Source: Promethearchaeota archaeon (lineage in GTDB: Archaea > Asgardarchaeota > Lokiarchaeia > Sigyniarchaeales > SOKP01). From it: a stretch of DNA of 29,837 nucleotides. The first letter of the stretch is position 1. Each line of letters begins with the position of its first letter. Below are positions 2,440-27,960 of the stretch, one piece after another. The stretch spans positions 1 through 29,837 of the forward strand of contig JABXKD010000045.1 in assembly GCA_013375475.1 (NCBI GenBank), in the 5' to 3' direction. The translations under genes and the position numbers were made by a program. Below the pieces are notes generated by a model. The model was not told where the DNA came from and made no database searches. It saw nothing but the letters and a program-made list of their open reading frames with translations.

Positions 2440-3132
2440 ATGGTATTATATAAAGATGGAAAAGTTTATCTGAAGATAGTGTATTGGGGTATGGGTGGCT
2501 CCGGAAAAACTACCATTCTAAAAACTTTATATAAAATAACCAAGGAAAGTAAAAAAGACATAATTCCGATTGGTGAACTCCAAATAATTGAAAAGGATAG
2601 TGGTGCCACCTTATATTTTGATCGTGGTCTTTTTCAGTCTACCAAGCAAAAGAAGGTTTTTTATAGAGTTTATACTGTTGCGGGTCAAAAAGGATTCTCT
2701 CCTTTAAGAAGAAAGATTTTTGCTAAGACTGAAGATCAAACTGATGCGGTTATTTTAGTAATAGATTCTCAAACGAAATTTTTAGAAGATAATGTTGAAT
2801 CCTTGTTGGAATTAAAGAACATGGCAAGAAATCGATTAATCAACGAAATTCCTGTGATTGTTATGTTGAATAAACAGGATCTTGATGATGTCATAGAAGT
2901 AGAGGATTTTAAACTGGTATTGAAAAACGAAAAATTATGGTTCGAACCAGATAATAAATTATACATTTGGAATCCTCTAATTTACTCTTCTTGTGCGCTT
3001 TATGAGAAGCAAAAGGAGATTTACCGTAGTTTTCATGAGTGTGCTCGGAGAACGGTACTCTATCACATATATGGAGACGGTAAGGCACCATCAGAGGAAG
3101 AAATACTCGATGATTCCATTGTAAACATTTAA
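2440..3132 (+). CDS. Small GTPase, MglA-like (Ras superfamily)
   Basis: KIVYWGMGGSGKTT (G1), TLYFD (G2), YTVAGQ (MglA-type G3 lacking the DxxG Asp), NKQD (G4), SCA (G5). Confidence 0.9.
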   Translation: MVLYKDGKVYLKIVYWGMGGSGKTTILKTLYKITKESKKDIIPIGELQIIEKDSGATLYFDRGLFQSTKQKKVFYRVYTVAGQKGFSPLRRKIFAKTEDQTDAVILVIDSQTKFLEDNVESLLELKNMARNRLINEIPVIVMLNKQDLDDVIEVEDFKLVLKNEKLWFEPDNKLYIWNPLIYSSCALYEKQKEIYRSFHECARRTVLYHIYGDGKAPSEEEILDDSIVNI

Positions 3133-6902: not shown

Positions 6903-7727
6903 TTAAGTTTTTTCAGTTTTATCGATTTTTTTTGCGTAATGCTTGCTTATGAAGTAGTAAAGTACAAACATTAGAACAAGAATTGCCAATACCACTAATA
7001 AGATTATATTAAACACTTCTGATTGAGCTCTAATTAACTCAACATCTGTAGTATCAATAGGGGGCGTGAATCCTAGTAAAGCACCCCATACGGAGTAAAA
7101 GAAAGCTCGAAAAATTGAGCCTATTAATGTACCAATTGAATATTTCTTAATATCTATATCGACCAAACCAGATGCGTATGAAATTACATCAAATGATATG
7201 AAAGGAATAAATCTGGATACAACTATTGCTTTAGTTCCATATTTATTAATCAATTTGTCTGCCATAGCAAGTCCACTCTCTCCAACAAATTTTTTTGCTA
7301 AAGGTCTTCCTCCTCTCCTACTTATATAGAAGCACAATAAACTCGCAGCCATTGAACCAATAATTCCCATGATTCCTCCGAAAAACCAGCCCCAGATCAT
7401 CCCAGTAGCTAAGAGAACTACTTCGGACGGGATTGGAACTATTAATCCTTGTATCGCCATAATACCAATAAAAAGGAATATTCCTAAAAATTCTAAAGCG
7501 TAAATTGGATTAACAAACCATTCTGCAACAATTGTATAAACGAACGTCGTATCTATAAAATAATTGTAATATAATATGATGAGGGAAAGCACTACAAGTG
7601 CGACAAACAATACAATATATAGCATAGTCTTTATGCTATACTGAGAAAAATTAAACAGATTTTTGATATATTTTTTAAATTTAAAAGAAAATGATTCGTC
7701 GTTCTTGTTCTCTTCCATGGCAATCAA
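6903..7727 (-). CDS. DedA/VTT (TVP38/TMEM64, SNARE-associated) family membrane protein; start probably ATG 7718
   Basis: IVPIPSEVVLLATGMIWGWFFG, G.MAASLLCFYISRRGGRP and SRFIPFISFDVISYASGL motifs of the VTT domain. Confidence 0.9.
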   Translation of the reverse strand: MIAMEENKNDESFSFKFKKYIKNLFNFSQYSIKTMLYIVLFVALVVLSLIILYYNYFIDTTFVYTIVAEWFVNPIYALEFLGIFLFIGIMAIQGLIVPIPSEVVLLATGMIWGWFFGGIMGIIGSMAASLLCFYISRRGGRPLAKKFVGESGLAMADKLINKYGTKAIVVSRFIPFISFDVISYASGLVDIDIKKYSIGTLIGSIFRAFFYSVWGALLGFTPPIDTTDVELIRAQSEVFNIILLVVLAILVLMFVLYYFISKHYAKKIDKTEKT

Positions 7728-9579: not shown

Positions 9580-12500
9580 TTATTTAGTTTTGCTTTTAAT
9601 TAGCTTTATATTGCTTTTAATCACTTTTGCAACGGGTAACTTCTCCGCACCAGCTTGAACAAGTGTATTAAGCGCGTCTTGATGATTTTTTAAAGCTTCA
9701 GCATAAGATTTCTGTTCTAGGTAAGTTAATCCTAATCTATATTGACTTTCAGCCATTCCTTCACTATCTTCAAGTTCTTCGTATATTTTAAGGGCTTGAT
9801 TGCATTTTTTCCACGCCTCGGTATATTTTCCCTCGTTTAGATAAGCTAATCCTTCATTATTCAAATATTTAGCGTTGTTTTTCCGGTCTTCTTCCCGCTC
9901 TGCTATTTGTGCAGCTTCTTCGAAGCGTTTTAACGCAACGGTATAATTACCCTCGTCCAAATATATTAAACCTATATTATTAAGGCTTTCTGCTTTTCGG
10001 GAAAAATTTTTTAATTCCTCATCTAAATTTAAAGATTCTTCGAATGTCTTCAATGCATCAAGATATAACCCCTGGTCCCTATAGATCATAGCAGTATTAT
10101 ATAAATTTTCAGACCTCTCATTTGAGGGCCCTAATACTTTGAAGAGCTTTGTTCCACGATCGTACCACTTAAGTGCTTGATTGTAATCACCGCGATCTTG
10201 ATATACTAAACCAACTCTATTCAAACAATATGATTTGCCAATTAAGTCACCAATTTGATCAAAGATCTCAAGTGCCAAGTTATATCGCTTAAATGCATCT
10301 TTGTACACACCTTGCTTGTGAAAGAGGACACCAATTCTACAAAGGATTCGCGCTTTTCTTTCCTCATCATAAATTTGTTCTGAAATTTTATACGCTTCAT
10401 TGTTCCACTTGAGAGCTTCAGGATAATTGTCTAATTCTTGATAAATTAACCCTATGCTTTCAAAACAATCTGCATTGCCGTCAAGATTTTCGATTTCGTC
10501 GAAAAGTTTATATGCTTCCTCATACCATTTCAAAGCTTCTTGATAATGTTCTTGATCCTTAAAAATATCTCCAATTTTGCGTATAATTGTTGCTTGGTTT
10601 GTAAGGTTGCCTAGTTTTTCTTCAATCTCTAGCGCTTCTTTATATCTATTTAATACTTCAGGGAATTTTTTACGGACAAGAAATATATTACCGATGCAAA
10701 GAAGTCTATGGGCTTTGCCTTTCATGTTTCCGAGTTGATCATCAATGTTTAAAGCTTCTTCGTATAATTTTAGCGCTTCAAGATAATTATCTTCGTCGAA
10801 ATAAATATCCCCTATACTCGTAAAAATATCCGCTTTGATCTCAAGATTTCCTAAGCTTTCTGAAACATAGATAGCTTCATTATATCTCCTCACGGCTTCG
10901 GGATAATGTTTTTGAGCTTGATAAATTTCACCAATTATGTTAAGGATTTCAACTTGTTCTTCTAAATGGCCTAATTGATCTGCAATAAGTAAAGCTTCTT
11001 CGTAACGTTTTAAAGCTTCTACGAAATCCCATTGATCTCGATAGATCTTACCCGAAATATTTAGACAAACGGATTTTTTATGTAAGTTTCCAATCTGTTC
11101 AGCAATCTTGATCGCATCATCAAATTTTTCTAATGCTATCTCATCTTTTCCGGTATAATGATAATTTTTACCGATTAAGTGAAGGCTCTCAATTTTGCCT
11201 TCCATGTTATTATCCTTACTGAAAAGTTCATACGCTTCTTCGAATTTTTGCAGAGCTTGTGGATAATCTCCTTGATCTTGGAAAATAACCCCAATCATAT
11301 TTAGGAGCTCAGCTTTTTTATCGTCTTTTCCAATTTTTTTAATAATATCAAGAGCATCTTTATATCTACTTAAAGCATCTTTGAAATTAGCTTGTTCTGC
11401 ATAGTAGTTTCCTAAATTTTTCAAAGTTTCAGCATTTCCCTTAAGATTTTCCGTTTCTCCATAAATTCGAAAAGCTTCTTCAAAGTTATTTAACGAAGCT
11501 ACGAAATTTCTTTGATCGAGATAGATTTGTCCAATAGTAGTAAGAATAGCTGCTTGATTGTTTAAATCTTCATACTGTTCTAATATTTCGAATGCGCTTT
11601 CAAATCGTTTTAGAGCTTTCGGATAAGATTTCTGTTCCTTGTATATTAATCCCATACTTCTTAAGACATCAACCTTACCCTTTACTTCTCCAGCTTGGTC
11701 AAAAAATTTTAAAGAATCTTCGTACCATTTTAGGGCTTCAAAATGTTTATCTTGTTTTTGAAAAATTAAGCCTAGTTGGTTTGAAAACTTAGCTTGTAGT
11801 AAATTATCTCCCATTTTTTCCGCAATTTGAAAACCCTCTTCAAAGTAATCGAACGCTTTAGGATAGTTCCATTGATCACTATAAATTTTACCAATAGAAT
11901 TTAGAGCCTCTAGTTTTCCTTCCATATTTTGCAGTAGATCATAGATTCGTAACGCTTCATTACATTTTTCAAGACCAGTGAGCGAATCCCCCATCTCGTG
12001 AGATATTTGGCCAATGAAATTTAGAATTTCTGCTTTATCTTCAAAATTCTCTAATTTCTCGCTGATTTCTAAGGCTTGATTAAACTCTTTTAAAGCTGCT
12101 TCGTAATTCTTTTTTGAATAATAAACCTTTCCTTTGAGTTTATAATTAGATGCTTTTTCAGCAAGATTTGCATATCTCTCATTAATTTTAATAGACGATT
12201 CAAAGTATTTCAAAGCTTCATCGTAATTCTCCTGGTTTTGGTATGTTATACCTAGATATTTTAAGATTTTCGATTTTTCGTTAAAATCTTTGATTTTTTC
12301 ATTCTCTTTTAGAGCATATTCAAAATTTCTAATTGCTTCAGTATAATTTTTCTGAGCTTGATAGGAAAGACCCAAATACTTAAAAATGGAGACTTTTTGA
12401 GGAAAGATCTTTATTTTGAGTTGAACTTGTAAAGATTTCCGCAACCATTCTACTGCTTCCTTATAGTTCATTTGAGCATAGTTGATAATACCCATCTCCA

Positions 12501-13647
12501 TTAGGGAAATTGCTTTCCACGGATTATCTCCTGAGTCTTCGCTTAATCGAAAAATTCTTTCTAAACATCTTAATGAATCAGTGTAGTTTTTAGTTTCGAA
12601 ATAAATCTTATTTGAAATATATAACTTAGTCAATTCGCTTGGTTCATTAACGTTAGATTTAAGCCATTCCATCAAATTAATATTGAATTTATCTTTGCTT
12701 AGCTTTTCTTTAATCTTTAAGAGTTTCCCAAGAAATTTTGGAGTATTGATATTTAGGCGATAAACGTTAACAGAATCGTTTAATCTCTTAATTTCTGAAA
12801 GTTGTTGATCTAAATCATCCATACCGGTTATTTCGCTACTTTTTGGCTTTCCAACAACAAAAAGATCTTCTTTAGTTTTACTATCTGAAATGTGGTTTAT
12901 CCAAATTAGAGTTTTCAAATCGTCCATGATTTTAAGAGTCGAAATAAGATCGTAATCGTTCTTACCTGAATATCCCATAATTATAAGTGTGCGTTCTGAT
13001 GAGGTTTTTTCTAAAAATTGAGCTTTATAAGGTTCTAACTGGATGATATTATTCTTGGTCTGGTTTAATCCGATTAATTTTAAAGTATTTATAAACGATT
13101 TTCTTGTGTCTTCTCCCGTGATTATGTTTTTAGAAGAACCATGAATTTTATATACAGGAAATCTCCCACTCCGATAAAGTTTTTCTGGATCGCTGAATCG
13201 TTCGTAATCTTTCTCTGTAATAACGGGGACAATTTTCTTTTTAGGGATATCAGATTGTAAGAGAGCATATTCCAGAAGAAAATCGAAGTTGGTAGTTATT
13301 ATAAAATGCCCTTTTTTTATCATCTCAGCTAAAACTAAATGCTCAAGGTTGGGTTTGTCACTTTCCTGATAAAAATCTAGAAATTTCACATCATCTAAGG
13401 ATTCAAGAATAATACCCGTTAGAATTTCAAATGGTAAATTTTCTATTTTCGAGATTTTGTCTATTTCTGACTTAGAACATGAAAATTTAATGAGCGCTTC
13501 AATCGTTTCATTCGCTGCGGGTAATTGCGAAGGAGACTCCACCGAAGCTCCCGCTCCTACTAAAAATGTAAATTTTTCGTCTTCTGATATTAACTCATTA
13601 ATATTTAAATTAGATTTTTTAATTGAACTCAAATTATTCTCACCCAA
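9580..13647 (-). CDS. SIR2-like (SIR2_2) domain + 25x TPR repeat protein
   Basis: N-terminal FLVGAGAS..SQLP, IITTNFD, KIHGS and IMGYSG..DYD motifs of SIR2_2 domains, followed by about 1000 aa of 40-aa TPR-like repeats. TTG start. Confidence 0.9.
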   Translation of the reverse strand: MGENNLSSIKKSNLNINELISEDEKFTFLVGAGASVESPSQLPAANETIEALIKFSCSKSEIDKISKIENLPFEILTGIILESLDDVKFLDFYQESDKPNLEHLVLAEMIKKGHFIITTNFDFLLEYALLQSDIPKKKIVPVITEKDYERFSDPEKLYRSGRFPVYKIHGSSKNIITGEDTRKSFINTLKLIGLNQTKNNIIQLEPYKAQFLEKTSSERTLIIMGYSGKNDYDLISTLKIMDDLKTLIWINHISDSKTKEDLFVVGKPKSSEITGMDDLDQQLSEIKRLNDSVNVYRLNINTPKFLGKLLKIKEKLSKDKFNINLMEWLKSNVNEPSELTKLYISNKIYFETKNYTDSLRCLERIFRLSEDSGDNPWKAISLMEMGIINYAQMNYKEAVEWLRKSLQVQLKIKIFPQKVSIFKYLGLSYQAQKNYTEAIRNFEYALKENEKIKDFNEKSKILKYLGITYQNQENYDEALKYFESSIKINERYANLAEKASNYKLKGKVYYSKKNYEAALKEFNQALEISEKLENFEDKAEILNFIGQISHEMGDSLTGLEKCNEALRIYDLLQNMEGKLEALNSIGKIYSDQWNYPKAFDYFEEGFQIAEKMGDNLLQAKFSNQLGLIFQKQDKHFEALKWYEDSLKFFDQAGEVKGKVDVLRSMGLIYKEQKSYPKALKRFESAFEILEQYEDLNNQAAILTTIGQIYLDQRNFVASLNNFEEAFRIYGETENLKGNAETLKNLGNYYAEQANFKDALSRYKDALDIIKKIGKDDKKAELLNMIGVIFQDQGDYPQALQKFEEAYELFSKDNNMEGKIESLHLIGKNYHYTGKDEIALEKFDDAIKIAEQIGNLHKKSVCLNISGKIYRDQWDFVEALKRYEEALLIADQLGHLEEQVEILNIIGEIYQAQKHYPEAVRRYNEAIYVSESLGNLEIKADIFTSIGDIYFDEDNYLEALKLYEEALNIDDQLGNMKGKAHRLLCIGNIFLVRKKFPEVLNRYKEALEIEEKLGNLTNQATIIRKIGDIFKDQEHYQEALKWYEEAYKLFDEIENLDGNADCFESIGLIYQELDNYPEALKWNNEAYKISEQIYDEERKARILCRIGVLFHKQGVYKDAFKRYNLALEIFDQIGDLIGKSYCLNRVGLVYQDRGDYNQALKWYDRGTKLFKVLGPSNERSENLYNTAMIYRDQGLYLDALKTFEESLNLDEELKNFSRKAESLNNIGLIYLDEGNYTVALKRFEEAAQIAEREEDRKNNAKYLNNEGLAYLNEGKYTEAWKKCNQALKIYEELEDSEGMAESQYRLGLTYLEQKSYAEALKNHQDALNTLVQAGAEKLPVAKVIKSNIKLIKSKTK
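9634..12633 (-). repeat. 25 tandem 40-aa (120-nt period) TPR-like repeats within the SIR2-TPR gene
   Basis: Residues about 339-1338 divide into 25 consecutive 40-aa units (consensus A..LN.IG.IY..Q..Y.EAL..YEEAL.I.E.LG....K) with no indels on manual alignment. Confidence 0.85.
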
Positions 13648-15797: not shown

Positions 15798-16535
15798 ATG
15801 TCTAAAGAAGACCACATGAAACATTTAAATCTTGAGTTAACAGAATTATTAAGTAACGAAATTAAAGACCAGAAAAGCATCCTCGGTATTTCTATCTCAA
15901 CACACGGAGGAACACATATTGTAAGCGAGTTAAAGGAAGATATCAAGATGACAAAAACTGAACTCGCTGCTGCGAGTAGTAGCATGGTATTCCTTTCGTC
16001 TAAAATGTTAAGTGACTCTTTAAATCAAAAAAGCTCGTACACCTTAATTACCGGCCAAAAAAGGATAATTTTGTCAATTTTAACAGATTATATGGCCTTA
16101 ATCGCCTATTTAGATAGGGAATTAGCAGAACTTGAAGGGTTAGATTTTTACATACGTTCTCTAAGAAAACTCGCCATAAAAATGTCAGCAATTATAGAAA
16201 CTAGCGATCTCATCAAGGAAGAGATTTTTGTGGCTCTCAAAAGAGCAATTCCAAACGCGTTAGTTATCGCCATCATCACCAAAGATGGATTACCTATTAA
16301 AGTTCAGTCTACGATGCCTGAACCGATCATATCCGCAATGACTTCCGCAATTTATAATTTAGCGGGAATCTTATTAGAGGGAAGTCTAGAATTCTCAATA
16401 ATTGGTGGAGATCACGGCTCGATTATTATCCACGAATTAGACGAAAGCAGGATTCTCGCAATCGCTGTGTCCGAAGGAGATGAGAAAATCCTAAGAAGTC
16501 ATATAGCTAAAATCAAATCGATTATTAAACAATAA
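15798..16535 (+). CDS. Tandem (double) roadblock/LC7 (MglB/LAMTOR-like) domain protein
   Basis: Two units: ILGISISTHGGTHIVS...ELAAASSSMV.LS..ML and ALVIAIITKDGLPI...IISAMTSAIY.LA, each followed by the roadblock beta-sheet and terminal helix. Confidence 0.85.
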   Translation: MSKEDHMKHLNLELTELLSNEIKDQKSILGISISTHGGTHIVSELKEDIKMTKTELAAASSSMVFLSSKMLSDSLNQKSSYTLITGQKRIILSILTDYMALIAYLDRELAELEGLDFYIRSLRKLAIKMSAIIETSDLIKEEIFVALKRAIPNALVIAIITKDGLPIKVQSTMPEPIISAMTSAIYNLAGILLEGSLEFSIIGGDHGSIIIHELDESRILAIAVSEGDEKILRSHIAKIKSIIKQ

Positions 16536-17821: not shown

Positions 17822-20029
17822 TTAAAGTATTTTTTTTAGTTCCAAAATCAAGTTTTTAGGATTAACTCGATCGAATTGGAATATTTCAGCGCTTCCGTAT
17901 TTTTTAAAGTTTTTTTTTATGTTGTCGGCCGCAAAGGTATTCACACCTAAAGCTCGCGTTGCGTATGATTTTTTAGGCTCCAACACCACCATGTGCGCTC
18001 CTTTTTTAGATAGTTGTTTTGTCAAAACTTTTAATTCGTTAACAATTAAAGTGTAGTCTGATTGGATTTGAGCGACTAAGTCGGGATATTTATAAGATAT
18101 GTTTGCTCCCATGTCGCTACAGACAAAAACAACCGGAATTATGTTTCTATTTTTTAATTTCTCAGCGTCTATTAATTTTATACATTTTGTTAACGCTGCG
18201 GCCATAGGGGTGTAAGATTTTCCTTCAACTTTTTTGAGTTTGTTAACGGCAGATTTGAAGTAAACTGTAGGCTTTTGAAGAACTACAGCCTCCTTAGCTC
18301 TAAAAATAATTAAACTTAACTTATCTTTTTTCCTGTAGCCTTCTCGCTGGAGAGAAAGAATAACATCAGTCATTTGTTTGATTACGTAATACATTGAAGC
18401 TGAGCTATCGAGAACGAAAAAAAGTACTAGGGGAGCTCGATACTCGTAAATTTTATCCATTAAATCGTATTTATCAAATTTAATTGGAAATGATATATCC
18501 GTCTGGTTGTAAATTGTATTTTTTAAATAACTCCGTATTGTCGCGTCGAGAGCAATAGTTTTAGGACGATTAAGCGGCCTCCTGTATGAAACATACCTAC
18601 CTTTTTGAGAAGAAGCGATTTTTATGCGCCTTCCGATTCCCCTACCACCATAATCGGAAACTTTTCTATCTTTTCTTATCGTATCTAATACAGAAGTCAT
18701 TTTTGTTTCCATTTGGTAAATTAATGGCAGCGATTCAATTCCATTTTCAAAAAAATTGAATTCTCGGTCGTCGTAATCTGGTATATCTTTTACTTTCCAA
18801 CCTCCAGCAGGTGAGGGACTTCTTTTCTTGTTGTCGGGATATTTAGGGGGGGGTAGCTTTTGTTCTTTAGTTTCTGGAACATCAACTTTTTTTGGATCAA
18901 CTGATTGGCGCTTGAATTCTTTTTGTGGAGTTTCATCGTGCTTTAAAGGTCCTTCAGTATCTTTATTTGGTTGATAGATTTTTGGATCTTCGTAGGCTTT
19001 TTGTATTTTCCCATACACTTCTACTATTTTAGCTTTGACTTCTTCTGGAGTCATTTCGTAGTGGAGCGATTTTATTCTGTGCTCGAAAACTAAATCCATT
19101 GCTGCATTTAAATCTTCTTCAGCGACTTCAGTTCTTCCGTTTAACGCAGCGTGGGCACGAGCACACCTGATAAAAGTTATATCAGCTCTTTGAGAAAAAA
19201 TATCCAATTCGTTAACTAACTTCGAAACGAATTCATAGACGGAGGCAGGAATTTTGACATCCTTAATCAATTTACGCGCTTTTACTATTTTTTTTCTTAA
19301 TTCTTCTTGCTCTTGCTCGTATTTTTTAATAAAAGCTTTAGGATTGTCGTCGAAATCAATCACTCGTTTTGTGATTTCAGCGCGTAGTTTAGCATCTCGT
19401 GGAGCCTTTATTTTTACTTCTAAACCCAGTCTGTCTGCTATTTGTGGGCGAAGATCTCCTTCTTCTGGATTCATTGAACCAACTAATATGAACCGAGAAG
19501 GGTGCATAACAGAAATTCCTTCCCTTTCAATAATATTCACACCAGAAGCAGAAGCATCTAATAAAGTATCGACTATATGATCTTGGAGTAAATTTATCTC
19601 ATCAATATAGAGAATACCACGATTAGCTTTAGCAAGAAGTCCAGGGTGTAAGCTCCTTATCCCTTCAGTTAATACTTTGTCAATTGATAGCGAACCTGTT
19701 ACCATATCTTCTGTAACTCCTAAGGGTAAGTTAATTAACCGCATTTCTTTAAATTGAATACTTAGTTCACCCTTTTCTTTTCTTTCGCGGCATTCTTCGC
19801 ATAGATCATCAACATGGGATTTAGGATTGCATGAAAACTGACAATCTTTAACTACTTCTATATCTGGCATTACTTCTACGAGAGAGCGAACACCCGTTGA
19901 TTTTCCAGTGCCTTGCTGACCAGTTAACAAAACTCCACCGATTTGAGGGTCAATAACATTCAAAATAAGTCCGAGTTTCATTCTATCTTGTCCCAAAATA
20001 GCAACAAATGGGAATTGAGCTTTACGCAT
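17822..20029 (-). CDS. Mg/Co-chelatase ChlI/ChlD-type AAA+ ATPase fused to a vWA domain
   Basis: FPFVAILGQD, GGVLLTGQQGTGKST (Walker A), GLLAKANRGILYIDEINLL (Walker B), NPEEGDLRPQIADR, a Pro-rich charged linker, then vWA with MIDAS FVLDSSASM / YTP / SD. Confidence 0.9.
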   Translation of the reverse strand: MRKAQFPFVAILGQDRMKLGLILNVIDPQIGGVLLTGQQGTGKSTGVRSLVEVMPDIEVVKDCQFSCNPKSHVDDLCEECRERKEKGELSIQFKEMRLINLPLGVTEDMVTGSLSIDKVLTEGIRSLHPGLLAKANRGILYIDEINLLQDHIVDTLLDASASGVNIIEREGISVMHPSRFILVGSMNPEEGDLRPQIADRLGLEVKIKAPRDAKLRAEITKRVIDFDDNPKAFIKKYEQEQEELRKKIVKARKLIKDVKIPASVYEFVSKLVNELDIFSQRADITFIRCARAHAALNGRTEVAEEDLNAAMDLVFEHRIKSLHYEMTPEEVKAKIVEVYGKIQKAYEDPKIYQPNKDTEGPLKHDETPQKEFKRQSVDPKKVDVPETKEQKLPPPKYPDNKKRSPSPAGGWKVKDIPDYDDREFNFFENGIESLPLIYQMETKMTSVLDTIRKDRKVSDYGGRGIGRRIKIASSQKGRYVSYRRPLNRPKTIALDATIRSYLKNTIYNQTDISFPIKFDKYDLMDKIYEYRAPLVLFFVLDSSASMYYVIKQMTDVILSLQREGYRKKDKLSLIIFRAKEAVVLQKPTVYFKSAVNKLKKVEGKSYTPMAAALTKCIKLIDAEKLKNRNIIPVVFVCSDMGANISYKYPDLVAQIQSDYTLIVNELKVLTKQLSKKGAHMVVLEPKKSYATRALGVNTFAADNIKKNFKKYGSAEIFQFDRVNPKNLILELKKIL

Positions 20030-20123: not shown

Positions 20124-21122
20124 TCAAAATGCAAATTTTTTGGCTATTTCTGTGAGTTTAGTGTTTAATTGAGAAACTGTATTGTCCCACTGAGATAAAA
20201 TCGTATCGATTTTAGGGATAATTATAGATCTCTCTTTATATTCTAGGTAATTCATAAATTCTCTGATATTTTCAACTTTAATGAAAGTTTCAGCTATAAA
20301 TTTTCTTATATCGCGAGTTTGACTACTAAGAACTTCATGTATTCTATGGGATTCTCCCGTTCGAGATAAAGTGTGTAGATATTCTTCAACACCTTGTAGA
20401 AGTGAATTCAATTCATTTATCCGACTATCAATAAATTTGTCATAAATTTCAAAGACATTTTCACCAGAAAAGAAATTAGTGATGTCAATAGCCAATTTCT
20501 GAGCAGATCTTACCATTTGCTCATTATCTTCAAAGCCTTCAATCTTATATTCAACTTCGTAAAAATTGCTATACCTGTCGTTTGGATCTTCCATTCTAAA
20601 AATTTTAAATCCGGGATCGTCCCTTAGCTGTCTTACGGGATCACCTGCTTTTTGGGGAAGTTCAATTTGCCTTATAAGTCTGTCGGGATTGAAAACGAGC
20701 GCTATTGCTAATGGATTATGAGCTTGATACGAGATAGTAGTTTTACGATCTCCAAACCCAGATAGCATTACTTTAAATCCAGGGTGACTATGCCACCAAC
20801 CTACAGTGAAGTCTCCTCTTGAAAATGCCTCTTCATCAATTAAGGCAAAAGATTCGTGATCTTCGTCAGAATATTCGTAGCCATCAATAACAGTACGAGG
20901 ATCAGATTCATCAACATTAGCGTCATTGGGATCAAAAGTGTCATGCATTATTGGGTAGCATGCTGAAACATAGAGATCTTTCCCATTTTTATTTTCGATG
21001 AATTTCCCAGTAAAAATTCCACTTACTTCTTTCCAATCCTCTTTGGGTCTTTTTCTATTAGCAAATCTTACGCAGGCTGCAACAACAGTAAAATATACTT
21101 CTTTTGGGATAATAACAGTCAT
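20124..21122 (-). CDS. MPN/JAB1 (JAMM-like) domain protein with C-terminal helical region
   Basis: KEVSGIFTG (catalytic Glu), CYPI, VGWWHSHPGFKVMLSGFGD, AIALVFNP. Start placed at ATG 21122 (MTVIIPKEVY, first MPN strand) instead of the TTG at 21227 used by the ORF track. Confidence 0.85.
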   Translation of the reverse strand: MTVIIPKEVYFTVVAACVRFANRKRPKEDWKEVSGIFTGKFIENKNGKDLYVSACYPIMHDTFDPNDANVDESDPRTVIDGYEYSDEDHESFALIDEEAFSRGDFTVGWWHSHPGFKVMLSGFGDRKTTISYQAHNPLAIALVFNPDRLIRQIELPQKAGDPVRQLRDDPGFKIFRMEDPNDRYSNFYEVEYKIEGFEDNEQMVRSAQKLAIDITNFFSGENVFEIYDKFIDSRINELNSLLQGVEEYLHTLSRTGESHRIHEVLSSQTRDIRKFIAETFIKVENIREFMNYLEYKERSIIIPKIDTILSQWDNTVSQLNTKLTEIAKKFAF

Positions 21123-21375
21123 AGTTTGAATTTTGACTATAGTATTTGAACAATTAATACCATTACATATATTTATGTCTTTATTTTTACTTATGATACC
21201 CGATTCTGTTGGCGAAGGAGTATTCAACCATAAATATTATAACTACGGAAAGATTGATTTTGCTTGGTTGAACATAAAATTATTTAAAGTCAAAATTTAT
21301 CATAATATTATTATTTCAATAAATCAATCTGATTTCAACTGATTAGAATATATACCAAATAGAGTTGACTAAATT

Positions 21376-22020
21376 ATTTCTGAAAAAGGATTTGAACCCC
21401 TTAGTAGCCAATTAGGAATCCCTGGAACATCGTACAGAATTCAGTTAGGGCTCATAAATGGCAAGTGGGCATCTCGTTTGCTAAAGGGCAATACTTTAAT
21501 AGATTCATATGTTTATAAGGATGAAGATATGAGCGCGTCTGGATTCCCTAATCAAAATCTCATAGTAGGTTGGGTATTGAGGACAGTAGCAATTCCAAAT
21601 ATTAATCCTCACCAAATAATGAAAACCACGCAAGCCTTAACAAAACAAGCGATTACGAAAAAAGAAGAAAAGAAAGTTGTAGCACCCATCGAAGAAGCTA
21701 AAAAAGTAGAGTTAGAAAAGGTTCCTGTAAGCGAACTAAAAAGACCTATGGTAACAGGATGGGTAAAAGAAGAGGGGATTAAATCGGTCCTAGAGTTAGA
21801 AGAGGAAAAACGCCAAGCATTCCAAGAAAGAATGAAATACAAAAAAGAAGAAGAGAAAATCTATGCAGAAGATACTACTACTTCTACCTTAAAAACAACA
21901 AGAGAGTTGCCACAAATACCAAAAGGAGAGGGAGCCGAAACTTCGACTTTTTGTCCTCACTGTGGGAAAGATTTAGGATGGAAATTCTGCCCATACTGCG
22001 GAAAACCTCTACCGCATTAA
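21376..22020 (+). CDS. Hypothetical protein with charged linker and C-terminal double zinc ribbon; probable non-canonical ATT start
   Basis: C-terminal FCPHCG...FCPYCGKPL. The frame is open from 21373 (after TAA at 21370-21372) and encodes ISEKGFEPLSSQLGIPGTSYRIQLGLINGKWASR before the TTG at 21478 called by the ORF track. Confidence 0.75.
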   Translation: MSEKGFEPLSSQLGIPGTSYRIQLGLINGKWASRLLKGNTLIDSYVYKDEDMSASGFPNQNLIVGWVLRTVAIPNINPHQIMKTTQALTKQAITKKEEKKVVAPIEEAKKVELEKVPVSELKRPMVTGWVKEEGIKSVLELEEEKRQAFQERMKYKKEEEKIYAEDTTTSTLKTTRELPQIPKGEGAETSTFCPHCGKDLGWKFCPYCGKPLPH

Positions 22021-22270: not shown

Positions 22271-23725
22271 ATGGGGAAAGATGTAGATAGTAGCGTAGTT
22301 AAGATAAAACCTGACGCTTATTATAAAATGATTCTGCACGTTTTTCGATTTGGTAATAGAGCTAGAAATCACTCTCAAAATATTGAAGTTATGGGTGTTC
22401 TCATTGGTCATCTCGAAGAGGGCGAAGATAAAAAATTTAAGAACGTGATAATAGAGGATGCTGTGCCTATTTCGCACGGTAGTAGCGTAGAAGTTGAATT
22501 TTCAATCAATGATTACATATTCTTTGAAAAAGCTAATTCCATGTATTTAGAAAAAAACTGGTTTATGGTTGGCTGGTATCATAGCCACCCCGATTTATTC
22601 CAACACAAAATTTTCTTTTCACCTACAGACGTTAAGAATCAATTTGGATGGCAAAACGAATTGAATCCTAGTGGAATAGCCTTAGTGTTTGATCACGCAT
22701 ATTTGGATAACCCTGAAGATCCGGGATTTAGAGCAATTCGTTTAACGAACCCTACTAACGTCAGAGATTCGAGTGTTCACCAAGTAACTGCTATAGTAGA
22801 ACCCCCAGATAGCCTTGAATATTATTTTAAAATAGTAGAATTAATTAATTGTGTTCATACAAAAGACCCTCCCATAACGGAAGAAAATGAGACCGCTGAC
22901 ATTTTCGGAGATGTGAAAGTTCCTAAGCTAAATCAATTACAATTTAAACAACCAATGATCGATCAACATAAGGTTATAGAATCTTTTCAGATAGGACTTG
23001 CTAATTTTCTGGATTTATCTTTAACCCCCTTAATAGACTTCCTTAATTCTATCAGCACAAATATTTCAGGAGAAATTGAGAATAATAATGTAGAAATTAG
23101 TACAAATTTAAATCAGCTAAAAGAACTGATTAACACTGGGATTGACAAAATACAAAGGAAATATAAAGACGATCTAAACGCGGAATTATTTAATGCAGAG
23201 GGTTATGTTGACGACTTTTTAGACCAAATCGATGGGTATCAGGGAGAAATTATTACTATATTAGATGAAATAAAAGAAATCGTTGAAGTGAAAGTTAGTG
23301 ACCTATTGAAAGAAAAATTTGATGTATTGAAAAACGAATTTTCAAGAGATTATGACGAGTTTCATAAGAAATTAGTAGATTTTAATAGTGATATTTCAGT
23401 TAATCTTGATAATTTGGAAAAGATTGAAACCTCCTTAAACTCCTTATCAGAAAAAATCAATACTATAAAGGAAACAACTCTTGAAAAAATAAAAAAGATG
23501 CAAAAAGAAACTTCTGATGTAACATCAAAGAAGCAAAGTAAAGCATTAGGTATTCTAACTGATCTAAATAAAAAATCGCAGAAATTCTTGACTAACATGA
23601 AAGCAGCTGTTCTTATTTTGGAAAGCACAAAAAAGCCCATATTTGAAAAGATTGATAAATTGGAGTCAGAAAAAAAACAACTCTTGTCTAAAATTAAAGA
23701 ACTTGAAAAAGGAGGTTCAGATTAA
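22271..23725 (+). CDS. MPN/JAB1 (JAMM) domain protein with long C-terminal coiled coil
   Basis: VKIKPDAYYKMILH, IEVMGVLIG (Glu), DAVPISHG, VGWYHSHP..x10..SPTD, GIALVFD, and about 250 aa of heptad-rich C-terminus. Confidence 0.9.
   Translation: MGKDVDSSVVKIKPDAYYKMILHVFRFGNRARNHSQNIEVMGVLIGHLEEGEDKKFKNVIIEDAVPISHGSSVEVEFSINDYIFFEKANSMYLEKNWFMVGWYHSHPDLFQHKIFFSPTDVKNQFGWQNELNPSGIALVFDHAYLDNPEDPGFRAIRLTNPTNVRDSSVHQVTAIVEPPDSLEYYFKIVELINCVHTKDPPITEENETADIFGDVKVPKLNQLQFKQPMIDQHKVIESFQIGLANFLDLSLTPLIDFLNSISTNISGEIENNNVEISTNLNQLKELINTGIDKIQRKYKDDLNAELFNAEGYVDDFLDQIDGYQGEIITILDEIKEIVEVKVSDLLKEKFDVLKNEFSRDYDEFHKKLVDFNSDISVNLDNLEKIETSLNSLSEKINTIKETTLEKIKKMQKETSDVTSKKQSKALGILTDLNKKSQKFLTNMKAAVLILESTKKPIFEKIDKLESEKKQLLSKIKELEKGGSD
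23711..23715 (+). promoter_or_regulatory. Shine-Dalgarno-like GGAGG for the 23728 gene, embedded in the end of the upstream MPN gene
   Basis: AAAGGAGGTTCAGATTAAAGATG: GGAGG lies 12 nt before the ATG, and the intergenic gap is 2 nt. Confidence 0.5.
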
Positions 23726-23727
23726 AG

Positions 23728-25110
23728 ATGACTGATGAAAAAGAAGCAGTAAGTGAAAGTGGAAAAATTTTTATAAAGATGAGCGCGTTTAACGACATGC
23801 TTTCCCATGTCCTAAGATTTACTAATATATCTCTTGATTTTCATGATCAAGTTTTGGGATTTTGCCTAGGGAATAGAGATCCTAATAATAACAATCTTAT
23901 TGTAAGTCAGGTTATTCCAATAACCCATGGTGACATTGTCGAGTTAGGGTTTTCCGAAAAGATTCACAAATTTTTAGTCCAAACTAAAGAAGAGACAGAA
24001 GGCAAGGATATTGAGGTATTAGGGTGGTATCACAGCCATCCTGAAAGCGAATCGTTTTTCTTTTCTGATGTTGACAAAAAAAATCATCTTAATTTTCAGA
24101 ATGAAAAGACTCCTAATGCCTTTGGAATTGTTTTTGATCATTCCAAACTCCAAATGGGAAGTAATTTTGGTTTAGAAGTCTTTCGTTTAGAGGAACCTAA
24201 AAAGGGAGTAAAAAGTAAAGCGATTAAGGTTGAATATGAAATAGAAGCACCCAAATCTTTAGATTTCTATAGAAGGATTCAAAAACTCGTTGAATATGGT
24301 CAAATGAAAAACCCAATAATAATTCGAGAGAAATTGGAGATGAACGATCAAATTCCTCCCGATCTTCAAGAAATTCCTATGTCTGTAGAACAATTGGATT
24401 CCGATGTCGAACTAAAATATCCAAACATTGAACCGGTCGTAGAAGGAGTTAAGAAAGGTCTACAAAACTTTTCTAACTTAGTCTTGAATAATTACAAAAT
24501 GGAGCTAGAAACATGGTCTACGGAATTTAACGATGGAGCACTAATAGGTTTAGCAAAAATTAGTAATTCCATATCATATATGAATTCAGCAATAAACAAT
24601 GGGTTTGAGAAAGTAGAAAAATGGATAGACCTTAATTTTAAAGAAAGAATTGACGAATATAAAGGTAAGATAGAGGGATACGTAAAGAAACGTATTGTAG
24701 GTCAAGAAGATTTAAAATCTAATACATCTAATATAAAAGAAAGTTTAATAAATGAAATCAATAAAAATCTAGAGCAAAGTATCGAGGTTATCACTAAATC
24801 TATTAAGAAAGATCTGAATGAAACCATTAACAAATTGTATGAACTTTCAATGCAAGATAAAAAGATTAAAGAAAGCATTGAGAAATCAAGCAATCAAATC
24901 TCCAATCTGACATATATGATCGAAAATCTTTCAATTGACATGTTAAAAGGGATAAGCGCCATCAATCACCCCTTCGAATTAAATTTGAGTACAAATTATG
25001 ATAAAACCATTTCAGAACTCGAGCTTTTTAACAGTAACTTCGTTGAGCTTGAAGAATTAATAGAAAGACTTCAATCTATAATTCCTGATTTCAGGAATAT
25101 TAAAAAATAA
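23728..25110 (+). CDS. MPN/JAB1 domain protein (Glu->Gln at the catalytic position) with long C-terminal coiled coil
   Basis: IFIKMSAFNDMLSH, DQVLGFCLG (Q where the paralogs have E), VIPITHG, LGWYHSHP..x8..SDVD, AFGIVFD, coiled-coil C-terminus. Confidence 0.9.
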   Translation: MTDEKEAVSESGKIFIKMSAFNDMLSHVLRFTNISLDFHDQVLGFCLGNRDPNNNNLIVSQVIPITHGDIVELGFSEKIHKFLVQTKEETEGKDIEVLGWYHSHPESESFFFSDVDKKNHLNFQNEKTPNAFGIVFDHSKLQMGSNFGLEVFRLEEPKKGVKSKAIKVEYEIEAPKSLDFYRRIQKLVEYGQMKNPIIIREKLEMNDQIPPDLQEIPMSVEQLDSDVELKYPNIEPVVEGVKKGLQNFSNLVLNNYKMELETWSTEFNDGALIGLAKISNSISYMNSAINNGFEKVEKWIDLNFKERIDEYKGKIEGYVKKRIVGQEDLKSNTSNIKESLINEINKNLEQSIEVITKSIKKDLNETINKLYELSMQDKKIKESIEKSSNQISNLTYMIENLSIDMLKGISAINHPFELNLSTNYDKTISELELFNSNFVELEELIERLQSIIPDFRNIKK

Positions 25111-25203: not shown

Positions 25204-25491
25204 TTAATGATATTGAAGTCCCGCAACTTTCGATATCTGTAACTTATATTTTGGGATGTTTGTCCCAAGACGCTTAAGTTGATTATTTTTGGCTACAGAG
25301 GACAGAATTCTTCCAATTCGGTCGACCTTAATATCGACGCCGTAATTATCTTTTAAAACTGAGTTTATTTTATAAGACGATAAAATCACTACATCTGAAA
25401 TGTTCCTTTCAGCTAACATTTCAATCCCTTGCTTGACAAGGTTTATCAAGGTTTCTTTATCTGGTTTATTTGGCTGATTTTCCATCTGCAT
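25204..25491 (-). CDS. Small basic hypothetical protein, possible winged-helix fold
   Basis: Helix, then SSYKINSVLKDNYGV, VDRIGRILSSVAKNNQL and a terminal beta hairpin (KRLGTNIPKYKL), compatible with a wHTH. ATG start. Confidence 0.7.
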   Translation of the reverse strand: MQMENQPNKPDKETLINLVKQGIEMLAERNISDVVILSSYKINSVLKDNYGVDIKVDRIGRILSSVAKNNQLKRLGTNIPKYKLQISKVAGLQYH

Positions 25492-25638
25492 TATAATTAT
25501 TATTAGAGTCCTTTTAAATTTTAAGCAATAAAATCTAGAAAAGTATTGAGAATAAAAAACTATTTTTCTTTCAATTCATATACGAAAAATAATAATTTTT
25601 TTTTTAAAAACATTTCTTCCCAACAAACTTATTATTTG

Positions 25639-27960
25639 ATGAAAATGAAAGCTAAAGAAAATATTGCTAAAATGAAAAAATCTCTACAGCAGAGTGTACG
25701 AAAAATCTTCGTACAAGATTTATATGTAGAGGGGCAAGAACCTACAAAATCGTACTTTGGAGAAAGGAAGTTTTTTGGATTATATGCGATATTTTTAATT
25801 TATTCTTTTTTGATTCTAATAGGGATTAATTTTTCAGGACCCATCCTTGATTTTCTAACTTTTGGAAATCCTTTCGCTTTTGGAAACGCATTAGTTGCTT
25901 TTTTCCTTGCATTATCTTTACTATACAGCAATGATACGATCAGAAAGTTTATTTTTGAAAAAAATTCGCTAATTAAGCAAGTAGTATTATATGTAAGTAT
26001 TATCTTCGGATTTCATTTACTCTTTTCTTTCATTAATAGTATAAATACCAATTTCATAAGTTATCTCTTAGGTTTATCAACGATATGGCTTATTTTATTG
26101 AGCATTAGATTTTTTATGTACTCTAGAAAGTTTGCGACAAAAATTGAAGCACGTTTTATAACTAAATATTCTGTAATGCGCCGATTTGTTGCTTTTATAG
26201 CTCCATACTTTATATTGGGAGTATTGGTTGTTATAGCGCTGTTCTACAGAGGTTTATTAGTTTACATATCATTAGACGTCTTAGGTCCTTCCGCTCCTAG
26301 TGAAGCCCTAGGAGTTTATGTATTAGAAATGCGTTTGATTATGCCATTACTTTACTTTAGCTTAATATTAACTTTGCTATTTGTTATTTTTGAATTTGTA
26401 TTTACGAGACGAAGAGCTGAAACAAAACGAGCAGGACTGTTTGATAATTATACATTTTCATTAATAGTTTTATTTATATTTTTCTTTCAGGTATTTCAAT
26501 TATCCTTATTTTTAATTTTAAATCCTGTTACTGTCACTGCATTAAAAGCTACCGTGGGAGCAAGCAATTCGACGGTATGGTTCATTTTTATTATTGAATT
26601 TGCTTTTTCGATGTACTTCTTATATAGAATTATTAAAAAATTAGGTCATTCTTTAGAATGGAGATTTCTTATTTTTAAAAGAGACGGTTTAATATTGTTA
26701 GTATTAGGGTGCGTTCTTGCTCAAACTCTTACTCGTTTTGCGTTACAATCTCAGATACCAAATCAAGAAATTACTGTACTCGGTCAGTTCTTCATGGCAG
26801 ATAAATATGTTGTTTCTATTATAATGATTATATTCCTTGGAAGTACTTTACTATTTTATTATTTAAAACCACACGAAACATCGATGTTTATTCGGTTACA
26901 AAAAGAAACCGTTAACCAAGAAGAAGAAAGTATGGATATAATTTATAAGTTGATTAGAAGTGAGTATATCCGTAGAGGAGACGGTTTTCCTCTAGAGATT
27001 TTAGACCGCGAGTTAATAAGGGCAACGAGACTCTCGAAAAACAATATTTATTCAATAATCGAGGATTTAGTGAACCTTGACATAGATATTAGTTTAACAG
27101 AAAAAATAGATGAAGACGGAAGAATTCAAAAGTTTGTTGATTTTTCTTCGGTTCTTGAAAAATTTAACAAAAAGACTATTGCTCAAAAAAAGGCTAAAAA
27201 ATATCTTTCGGATAGACTCTACAACACGATGGTTTCGAAGAAGCCTAAAAAACTTGAATTACATGCCAATACTAATAGTAATCAAGCTTCTGATCGATTC
27301 ATTTCCTCTCTTGCTGCTGATTATACAAAAAAACAAAAGGACAAATTATCCTTTGAACAGAAACAAAAAGATCTTTCAATATCGTTTACTCAAAAAGAAA
27401 TTCCAAGCTCGTTGAAAAATACAATTTTAGAAATCTTAAAAAATGAATATATTTACCGAATTGAGAATCAAGAAAAATACCCCGACTTTAAATATTCTAT
27501 TTCAGAAATCGCGTCTGAAATTCAAATGCAAACAAGGATAACTCCAGGCCAGCTTTACCCAATATTAGAAACTATCAGCGAAGGAGATATAGAACTGGAT
27601 TTAATTAAAAACCCCGACGAACATGAAGACAGAAGAATTACATTTTTTCCGATTGCAGATGATTATTTATGTTATGCGCTTGCTAATTTTAGACCTGAAG
27701 TATATAGAAAAATTAGAATAAAAGTAATTAAGAGTTTTATCAAATTTTTAAATCGTACGAATGTTAAAACGTTTTTTTCTAAGCTTAGGAAAGAAATAGG
27801 AGAGAAAACTGAAGAACAAAAGGTATGGAACGATTTATACAAGGTTCTTAACAATTACTACCCTGTATATACTGAGGAAGTTGAAAAATTAAAGATGGGA
27901 ACAGGACTATTGAAGATTATTAAGATATTTCCTAAGAAGGATGTCGATATTTATCTCTAA
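25639..27960 (+). CDS. Large polytopic membrane protein (about 11-12 TM) with a cytoplasmic C-terminus holding two winged-helix-like repeats
   Basis: Hydrophobic segments across the first about 440 residues of the ORF and a soluble C-terminus with an internal duplication. Start moved from TTG 25546 to ATG 25639 (or 25645) because the leader is low-complexity A/T sequence. Confidence 0.8.
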   Translation: MKMKAKENIAKMKKSLQQSVRKIFVQDLYVEGQEPTKSYFGERKFFGLYAIFLIYSFLILIGINFSGPILDFLTFGNPFAFGNALVAFFLALSLLYSNDTIRKFIFEKNSLIKQVVLYVSIIFGFHLLFSFINSINTNFISYLLGLSTIWLILLSIRFFMYSRKFATKIEARFITKYSVMRRFVAFIAPYFILGVLVVIALFYRGLLVYISLDVLGPSAPSEALGVYVLEMRLIMPLLYFSLILTLLFVIFEFVFTRRRAETKRAGLFDNYTFSLIVLFIFFFQVFQLSLFLILNPVTVTALKATVGASNSTVWFIFIIEFAFSMYFLYRIIKKLGHSLEWRFLIFKRDGLILLVLGCVLAQTLTRFALQSQIPNQEITVLGQFFMADKYVVSIIMIIFLGSTLLFYYLKPHETSMFIRLQKETVNQEEESMDIIYKLIRSEYIRRGDGFPLEILDRELIRATRLSKNNIYSIIEDLVNLDIDISLTEKIDEDGRIQKFVDFSSVLEKFNKKTIAQKKAKKYLSDRLYNTMVSKKPKKLELHANTNSNQASDRFISSLAADYTKKQKDKLSFEQKQKDLSISFTQKEIPSSLKNTILEILKNEYIYRIENQEKYPDFKYSISEIASEIQMQTRITPGQLYPILETISEGDIELDLIKNPDEHEDRRITFFPIADDYLCYALANFRPEVYRKIRIKVIKSFIKFLNRTNVKTFFSKLRKEIGEKTEEQKVWNDLYKVLNNYYPVYTEEVEKLKMGTGLLKIIKIFPKKDVDIYL

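Follow-up and report, generated by a model that had tools for sequence, protein, structure and literature searches.

The eukaryotic ubiquitin machinery is characterized by the pairing of active with pseudo MPN subunits, as in the proteasome lid, the COP9 signalosome, eIF3 and the BRISC/BRCA1-A complexes. Here we describe two adjacent MPN genes, termed A and B, in a Promethearchaeota genome of the Lokiarchaeia (GCA_013375475.1); they lie on contig JABXKD010000045.1, of which positions 1 to 29,837, the whole stretch of DNA analyzed, are referred to as the window. We propose, with a probability of roughly 0.6, that these genes form a tandem-duplicated JAMM pair in which A is the catalytic member and B a co-translated partner with a decaying active site. 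The closest architecture among described systems is that of BRCC36 and KIAA0157/Abraxas, in which an MPN+ protein is again accompanied by an MPN- paralog and each MPN domain is followed by C-terminal helices. In PMC4579573, BRCC36-KIAA0157 is described as an MPN+/MPN- pair held by a coiled-coil helical bundle of the post-MPN helices, with the pseudo-subunit KIAA0157 or Abraxas activating and scaffolding BRCC36. The Rpn11-Rpn8 and CSN5-CSN6 pairs are likewise MPN+/MPN- paralogs arisen by duplication, and the MPN domains of A and B are nearest to Rpn11 and CSN5 in sequence and fold.

Among the archaeal enzymes, the Rpn11-like deubiquitinase of Caldiarchaeum subterraneum (CsRpn11) is the best PDB sequence match of both A and B. 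PMC6043591 presents it as a short stand-alone enzyme in a ubiquitin/E1/E2/E3 operon, crystallized as a homodimer, and gives the MPN+/MPN- heterodimer organization as not known in archaea. The archaeal JAMM1 desampylases of the HvJAMM1 type are also JAMM/MPN+ metalloproteases that remove a ubiquitin-like modifier, but the match to the NCBIfam model desamp_Halo was only marginal (16–18 bits against a cut-off of 130). No description of the A/B pair was found in the full-text literature; Asgard supplementary tables, which lay outside that search, may list A and B under JAB-domain clusters.

The A/B pair departs from BRCC36-Abraxas in several respects. Its tails, of about 250 residues, are several times longer, and no BRCC45- or MERIT40-type partners are evident. 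B would furthermore derive from a recent, active, Rpn11-like ancestor, remains intact in some species, and appears to have an archaeal, lineage-specific origin. Relative to Rpn11-Rpn8 and CSN5-CSN6, the differences are that B matches active MPN+ chains and that A and B are restricted to a single Lokiarchaeial order.

Gene A (22271..23725, forward strand) codes for a 484 amino acid MPN+/JAMM protein (Pfam JAB, 4.1e-13) laid out as an MPN domain, a disordered linker and long helices. Gene B (23728..25110, forward strand) codes for a 460 amino acid MPN paralog with a decaying active site (Pfam JAB, 1.6e-9). Against the JAB/MPN model PF01398, the cut-off of which is 22.5 bits, A and B scored 49.6 and 38.0 bits, respectively; unlike this eukaryote-type model, Pfam Prok-JAB remained below its own cut-off for both. 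BLASTP aligned the two proteins over 420 amino acids at 28% identity (E 6e-35), from the MPN domain through the motifs behind it and along the greater part of the tails. The junction (23711..23727, forward strand) contains a GGAGG at 23711–23715, within the last codons of A, the TAA stop at 23723–23725 and a 2-nt spacer, after which the ATG of B follows at 23728. An earlier interpretation of this DNA made from its letters, the sequence-only reading, had described two MPN genes 2 nt apart with an embedded GGAGG and with shared motifs after the MPN domain; the open reading frames (ORFs), the sequence itself and the BLASTP alignment, which runs through these motifs, agree with it on both counts.

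In the window and 10 other loci, gaps of -8 to +12 nt separate the stop of A from the start of B. The 3' end of A contains a purine-rich, Shine-Dalgarno-like run in the window and in 9/10 of the other loci, and this run is weak in locus L043. Portions of A and B are covered by contigs from RNA libraries (four metatranscriptome runs of a single study), and one of these, 202 nt in length, bridges the A/B junction (23670–23871). Such contigs fit co-transcription of A and B but are weak evidence, as they do not establish a single transcript and DNA may occur in RNA libraries; stretches of the two genes lacking contig cover are uninformative. A scan for sigma-70 promoters and terminators returned counts no higher than those in shuffled sequences, with a model that is not applicable to archaea.

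The catalytic residues of A form a complete set, namely E39, H104, H106, S117 and D120 (EHHSD in the five-letter patterns used below). The Glu39 codon (GAA) is located at 22385–22387 and the HxH...S..D core at 22580–22630, both on the forward strand. A thus combines the MPN fold with the complete JAMM E...HxH...S..D signature by which a metalloisopeptidase is recognized. In B, glutamine (Q41; codon CAA at 23848–23850, forward strand) occupies the position of the JAMM Glu, while H102, H104, S113 and D116, which span 24031–24075, are retained. Taking an MPN- protein to be one with the MPN fold and at least one catalytic or zinc-binding residue lost, B qualifies through Gln41. The sequence-only reading had A keeping the JAMM Glu and HSH..S..D, and B keeping the zinc ligands but carrying Gln, and these residues are confirmed.

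The same positions were followed through the orthologs, and also through a global survey in which the A MPN domain was scored against 1.84 billion cluster representatives and the hits were classed by A and B profiles. A-type sequences carried EHHSD in 23/23 family genomes, in eight of 10 further genomes (one of the others is masked at the Glu and one is broken by a TGA), and in 24/24 complete representatives of the global 50%-identity clusters. No catalytic substitution was present in any readable A ortholog. The B-type motif was intact in 3/22 family genomes and substituted in the other 19; together with the further genomes, where it was intact in 4/10, it is substituted in 25/32 genomes and intact in 7/32. 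The 22 family genomes yielded EHRSD six times, QHHSD four times, EHHTD three times, and ESHSE, ELRTT, EIHVD, EVHTD, EIHRD and EIHND once each, and the substituted patterns among the 10 further genomes were ELHSG (three times), QCHTD, NHHSD and SSRNN. In the global 50%-identity clusters, 25/29 B-type representatives were substituted, in 20 patterns, and EHHSD was found in 4/29. The zinc ligands have also been lost in many B lineages, His being replaced by Ile, Leu, Ser or Arg. A further set of B-like clusters, classed as 'intermediate' and resembling the downstream genes of sister families, possessed a complete motif in 7/13 cases; a search for related loci with one of these proteins, P0248, gave no locus. 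When the catalytic columns were left out of the tree, the motif had to change at least 10 times among B and not at all among A, and the change from Glu to Gln arose at least twice.

With respect to the glutamine itself, Gln occupies the Glu position in 4/22 family B orthologs and Glu in 18/22, although most of the Glu-bearing ones lack a His, the Ser or the Asp. Of the 90%-identity clusters near the window B, 91 possess Gln and one (61% identity) possesses Glu, and more distant clusters have Glu. Since Gln is near-universal in close relatives but Glu prevails in distant ones, Gln is best regarded as a local variant of the general B trend, confined to the subclade of the window, and not as a hallmark of B. 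With 25/32 orthologs substituted and 7/32 intact, the B family as a whole is in transition. The idea of an active/pseudo pair, put forward in the sequence-only reading, survives in a broader and stronger form (A EHHSD in 23/23, B substituted in 25/32), whereas its narrow version, a Glu/Gln contrast between A and B, fails by the refuting condition set in that reading, Glu being the usual residue in B orthologs.

The active-site region has some additional peculiarities. The spacing from HxH to the catalytic Ser in A is 10 residues in the clade of the window and seven in other A orthologs. This loop is enlarged in both proteins of the window subclade, by three residues in A (22589–22606) and by one in B (24040–24051), relative to all other orthologs; the stem branches leading to this subclade are likewise long in both genes, at about 0.9 each. 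One A ortholog, at locus L065 of genome G170, has an in-frame internal TGA within the MPN domain, which could be an error, a pseudogene or recoding. Selenocysteine was considered for the A orthologs flagged for TGA and rejected; in three of the five fetched loci the match simply ends with the TGA, which there terminates the gene itself, in L063 tblastn gave no stop inside the match, which ends short of the end of A, and the codon is internal in G170 only.

A is widespread within the order. Matches (E<=1e-18) were obtained in 142/154 genomes of the Lokiarchaeial order, including 130/134 of its own family, where the four misses are 61–99% complete, and 1/1, 6/14 and 4/4 genomes of the sister families, the last of which matched more weakly (1e-26 to 1e-30). 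In an even sample of 151 Asgard genomes, taken to survey the phylum, all 25 own-family genomes had a match to A at E<=1e-23, which extended along most of the query where the contig allowed. Outside the family this sample gave a best E of about 5e-18, covering the MPN domain only, and no full-length match. The named relatives of A and B are Promethearchaeota/Lokiarchaeia metagenome bins.

B lies directly 3' of A in 21/23 A-bearing loci; one of the other two ends at a contig edge, and in the second the pair is split by about 6 kb. The tandem is likewise present in 10/10 further loci, and as these include two sister families the duplication is older than those families. The synteny of the pair across genomes, which the sequence-only reading had named as a check, is conserved within the order. 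A zinc-ribbon gene, A, B, a gene for a 95 amino acid protein on the other strand and a gene for an 804 amino acid protein make up the constant neighborhood. In the sister-family genome G154, a 251 amino acid MPN-like ORF (L066:584-1336, forward strand) directly upstream of A produces a triple tandem; it scored 21.3 bits with Pfam JAB, just under the cut-off, and has kept one of the five catalytic residues, the other four being substituted (YKIRD).

The window genome contains seven JAB matches: A, B, a third MPN paralog C, long-tailed paralogs of 515 and 428 amino acids, a fragment, and a 277 amino acid copy. A maximum-likelihood tree of the MPN domain (40 rows, without eukaryotic sequences) placed the A clade (support 100/98) and the B clade (98/92) as sisters with support of 98/92, the next branches being the 515 and 428 amino acid paralogs and the C clade. 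The suggestion in the sequence-only reading that A and B arose by tandem duplication is supported by this topology. The 277 amino acid copy falls among MPN proteins from other Asgard families, separated from A, B and C by a 100/100 split; the window genome's own CsRpn11-type enzyme therefore belongs to a different clade from A, B and C.

The sequence-only reading had also considered the pair as a possible intermediate from which the MPN+/MPN- pairs of eukaryotes could be understood to originate. This idea is not supported: the pair occurs in one Lokiarchaeial order only, and the nearest solved relatives of B are active MPN+ enzymes. From their distribution and phylogeny, A and B are a lineage-specific, independently arisen parallel to the eukaryotic pairs and not their ancestor. 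Nor are they, on the same grounds, members of the Rpn11/Rpn8 lineage, because they are sister paralogs in one order, B resembles active enzymes, the canonical Rpn11-like gene of the genome is a different paralog, and a PCI context is lacking. As regards the latter, the genome has one PCI-like match, on another contig, and none was present in the conserved A/B neighborhood.

Structural models of A and B were produced with AlphaFold2 (AF2), with a mean predicted local distance difference test score (pLDDT) of 71 for A and 74.5 for B, which is moderate confidence. The layouts are alike: an MPN domain (residues 1–197 in A, 22271..22861, forward strand; residues 1–191 in B), a low-confidence linker of about 25 residues, and very long helices. 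The MPN domain of A is also backed by Foldseek and PDB profile matches. The linker of A (residues 205–230, 22883..22960, forward strand) has a pLDDT below 50, and a 22-sequence alignment revealed invariant or near-invariant residues in and beside it, namely E204, N206, E207, F212, G213, P218 and P228. The tail of A (residues 232–481, 22964..23713, forward strand) is modelled as two helices, 232–308 and 316–481, and that of B (residues 236–456, 24433..25095, forward strand) as a single one, with block pLDDT values of up to 92. Hydrophobic residues recur about every 3.65 positions in both tails, with autocorrelation peaks at lags 11, 7 and 4. A canonical heptad coiled coil was rejected in favor of a hendecad/heptad (11/7) mix. 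Of the coiled coil of about 250 residues given in the sequence-only reading, then, the long helical tails stand and the pure heptad does not. The periodicity probably also explains why the tails resemble apolipoproteins and designed helical bundles in composition. A search of the ESM Atlas with the A tail gave no usable match.

Foldseek matched the A model to BRCC36, Rpn11, CSN5 and CsRpn11 with a probability of 1.00. The top entries for A were BRCC36 chains (BRISC, BRCA1-A and CfBRCC36-KIAA0157) with about 295 aligned columns, and the top entry for B was Rpn11. In profile searches of the PDB, A matched CsRpn11 at 4.1e-14 and yeast Rpn11 at 1.1e-12, and B matched CsRpn11 at 4.7e-12. Both profiles matched CsRpn11, Rpn11, CSN5, BRCC36 and AMSH, and the MPN proteins that they matched are active enzymes only. 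Neither Rpn8 nor CSN6 was among the 44 matches listed for the B profile, the MPN matches there being MPN+ chains (Rpn11-like, CSN5 and BRCC36).

Paralogy, synteny, coupling signals, asymmetric conservation of the active site and purifying selection, the last detailed below, are directly observed. From these we propose that an Rpn11-like JAMM isopeptidase gene was duplicated once, in tandem, in the ancestor of a single Lokiarchaeial order, giving rise to A and B. A would have been kept as the catalytic subunit with zinc-dependent isopeptidase activity. B would be its co-translated partner, whose own catalysis was dispensable and which would have turned, separately in many sublineages, into an MPN- pseudoenzyme; within the window subclade the route would have been Glu to Gln with the zinc ligands kept. 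The two would associate through their MPN domains and helical tails of about 250 residues, in the manner of BRCC36-KIAA0157/Abraxas and Rpn11-Rpn8, and the long helical stalk would serve as a spacer or docking platform.

The complex may remove ubiquitin-like modifiers made by the genome's own ubiquitin/E2 system. The window genome contains four ubiquitin-family matches (three over the cut-off), three E2 matches and a separate ubiquitin/E2/JAB cluster. In this cluster, which is the usual Asgard ubiquitin cluster, the 277 amino acid JAB copy has an E2 and an E1-like fragment as neighbors, and its contig contains a ubiquitin-family match as well. Since ubiquitin-family and E2 proteins are encoded, candidate substrates for A and B exist.

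The association of A with B was approached in two ways. Complex prediction gave an ipSAE score of 0.49 (runs of 0.49, 0.50 and 0.44) against 0.00 for the best of three controls; the runs shared at least 56% of contacts, with a partner pLDDT of at least 65. The ipSAE mark is reached by 58/80 solved complexes and 2/110 mismatched pairs, and at 0.60 or below by 7/80 solved complexes and by both of the passing mismatches. The A+B prediction used custom alignments, for which these calibration counts hold only roughly, and its support for the complex is weak. Furthermore, similar complexes have already been solved, so that the pass could reflect memory. In the second approach, the evolutionary distances of A and B were correlated across 12 genomes (r=0.90), with a partial r of 0.66 after removal of three neighboring genes, a value reached by 0/5000 permutations. 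The conserved translational coupling and the co-variation in rate provide indirect support for the inferred heterodimerization of A and B.

A number of observations weigh against the proposed catalytic/pseudo pair. The intact motifs in 7/32 B orthologs and in 7/13 of the 'intermediates' indicate that certain lineages may have a catalytically active B and that the asymmetry of the pair need not be obligate. The A+B score falls in a band where passes are wrong in the majority of cases unless pairing was already probable, and the rate correlation could come from shared architecture or composition instead of contact. A tail periodicity of 3.65 residues fits amphipathic or bundle helices as well as it does a two-chain coiled coil. 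With full-length data and long outgroup branches the B-like sequences form a grade, so B monophyly depends on the data set. Lastly, A and B of genome G144 (L045:4825-10869) have about 6 kb of unrelated genes between them, comprising a hexapeptide-repeat transferase, an Arf-like protein and two ORFs of no assigned family; no other pair was seen to be split.

The intact B orthologs, the split pair and the weakly supported complex would also be expected if A and B worked separately, each self-associating by its own tail and co-expressed but unbound, with B acting as a neofunctionalized ubiquitin or ubiquitin-like reader, a substrate trap or, in some lineages, a second enzyme of different specificity. 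The window B, which has lost only the general-base Glu and has kept its zinc ligands, is what one would expect of a binding, non-cleaving form. We nevertheless think this arrangement unlikely. Adjacency is near-universal, with stop and start overlapping or abutting and a Shine-Dalgarno-like run embedded in A, and the rates of A and B co-vary beyond those of their neighbors; moreover, the loss of zinc ligands in many B lineages implies that B is not being conserved for a zinc-dependent binding pocket.

A and B evolve faster than the other genes of the locus (32–77% and 29–66% identity across loci, respectively, against 74–94% for a chelatase-like neighbor), which might be taken as the mark of a conflict or defense system, or of another non-ubiquitin JAB system in which A cleaves a different tag or precursor. 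JAB proteases are known attached to CBASS or Bil-type systems, and the tails match the ZorA and LmuB models, weakly and compositionally (E 5.6e-5 to 9e-3). PADLOC however gave only weak JAB matches (E 1.7e-4 to 5e-3) and weak matches of the coiled-coil type, and no system partner was found; membership in an anti-phage JAB defense system was rejected, PADLOC having returned no partner genes. The pair occupies a chromosomal region that is stably syntenic across the order, unlike the patchy defense islands, its MPN domains are closest to Rpn11, CSN5 and BRCC36, and its ratios of nonsynonymous to synonymous substitution (dN/dS, measured against three close relatives) are far under 1. A role in defense or in another such system is thus a long shot.

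The dN/dS values were 0.08–0.10 for A and 0.13–0.24 for B. In the MPN domain alone they were 0.17–0.22 for B and 0.03–0.08 for A, so that B is 2–8 times more relaxed there; the tails are alike. That B is a redundant, functionless duplicate drifting towards loss, as its faster evolution and the many ways in which its catalytic residues decay might be read, is scarcely credible given frames that are open and near full length in the 32 genomes examined (save for cuts at locus or contig ends), a low dN/dS in MPN domain and tail alike, 21 invariant columns among 26 sequences, none of them catalytic, and a duplication that predates the order's families, a span over which a useless gene would not have remained intact. 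By these measures B is retained under purifying selection and is not a dying gene.

Returning to the catalytic subunit with a decaying partner, a more specific version can be formulated. A and B may constitute an independent, prokaryotic, obligate MPN+/MPN- heterodimer, preserved at every stage from two intact sites to the replacement of all five residues in B, with a hendecad/heptad stalk of about 250 residues that holds a deubiquitinase at a fixed distance from an Asgard cellular structure. We offer this version tentatively, its chances being somewhat short of even.

A third MPN gene of the window, C (20124–21227, reverse strand; Pfam JAB, 1.5e-7), is divergently oriented and was not mentioned in the sequence-only reading. 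It adjoins the pair in 10/12 fetched loci, the zinc-ribbon gene lying between C and A, and constitutes a separate clade in the MPN-domain tree. C keeps the E, HSH and S...D residues and has a highly conserved C-terminal helical region of about 130 amino acids. Its motif reads S-x3-D instead of S-x2-D, with one extra residue, in the window and in L043. The TTG annotated as its start probably lies too far upstream, the likely true start being an internal Met at about 21122, as the orthologs begin with MTVIIPK. The 515 and 428 amino acid paralogs are located on contigs C273 and C266 (L002:1399-2943 and L004:754-2037) and have complete-looking JAMM motifs, and MPN-domain matches in frames of about 370–570 amino acids recur across the family genomes. 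The sequence data suggest that MPN proteins with a helical C-terminus have expanded specifically in this lineage.

Among the other genes of the window is that for the zinc-ribbon protein of 180 amino acids directly upstream of A (21478..22020, forward strand; Zn_Ribbon_1, 1e-6), present in 12/12 fetched loci. The 95 amino acid protein downstream of B (25204..25491, reverse strand) was also found in 12/12, at 62–87% identity, and was assigned to no Pfam or NCBIfam family. It is followed by the 804 amino acid protein (25546..27960, forward strand; 11/12), the N-terminal half of which is hydrophobic by eye and which gave no Pfam, NCBIfam or PADLOC match. Being recurrent beside the pair, the 95 and 804 amino acid proteins are candidate functional partners of A and B. 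The chelatase-like neighbor is an AAA+/VWA fusion (17822–20029, reverse strand), a putative cobaltochelatase or BchD/ChlD-like protein (TIGR02442, 580.7 bits, cut-off 779), and is by far the most conserved gene of the locus across the family. A functional link between it and the pair was rejected as ordinary synteny, the gene not being adjacent in 2/12 loci. Further away are genes coding for a 1355 amino acid protein in which an N-terminal SIR2-like domain precedes numerous TPR repeats (9580–13647, reverse strand; TPR_12, E 1.5e-134), and three eukaryote-like signature genes, namely an Arf-family small GTPase (2440–3132, forward strand), a VTT-domain membrane protein (6903–7727, reverse strand) and a Roadblock/LC7-domain protein (15798–16535, forward strand).

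The long-tailed MPN proteins, comprising A, B, C and the two further paralogs, add a lineage-specific expansion to Asgard ubiquitin signaling. If the proposed relationship between A and B is correct, the family would represent a natural time series for the emergence of pseudo-deubiquitinases like Rpn8, CSN6 and Abraxas. Natural variants of B exist by the dozen, ranging from intact through loss of a single residue to full loss, and could be used to test what a pseudo-deubiquitinase partner does, be it activation, scaffolding or substrate capture.

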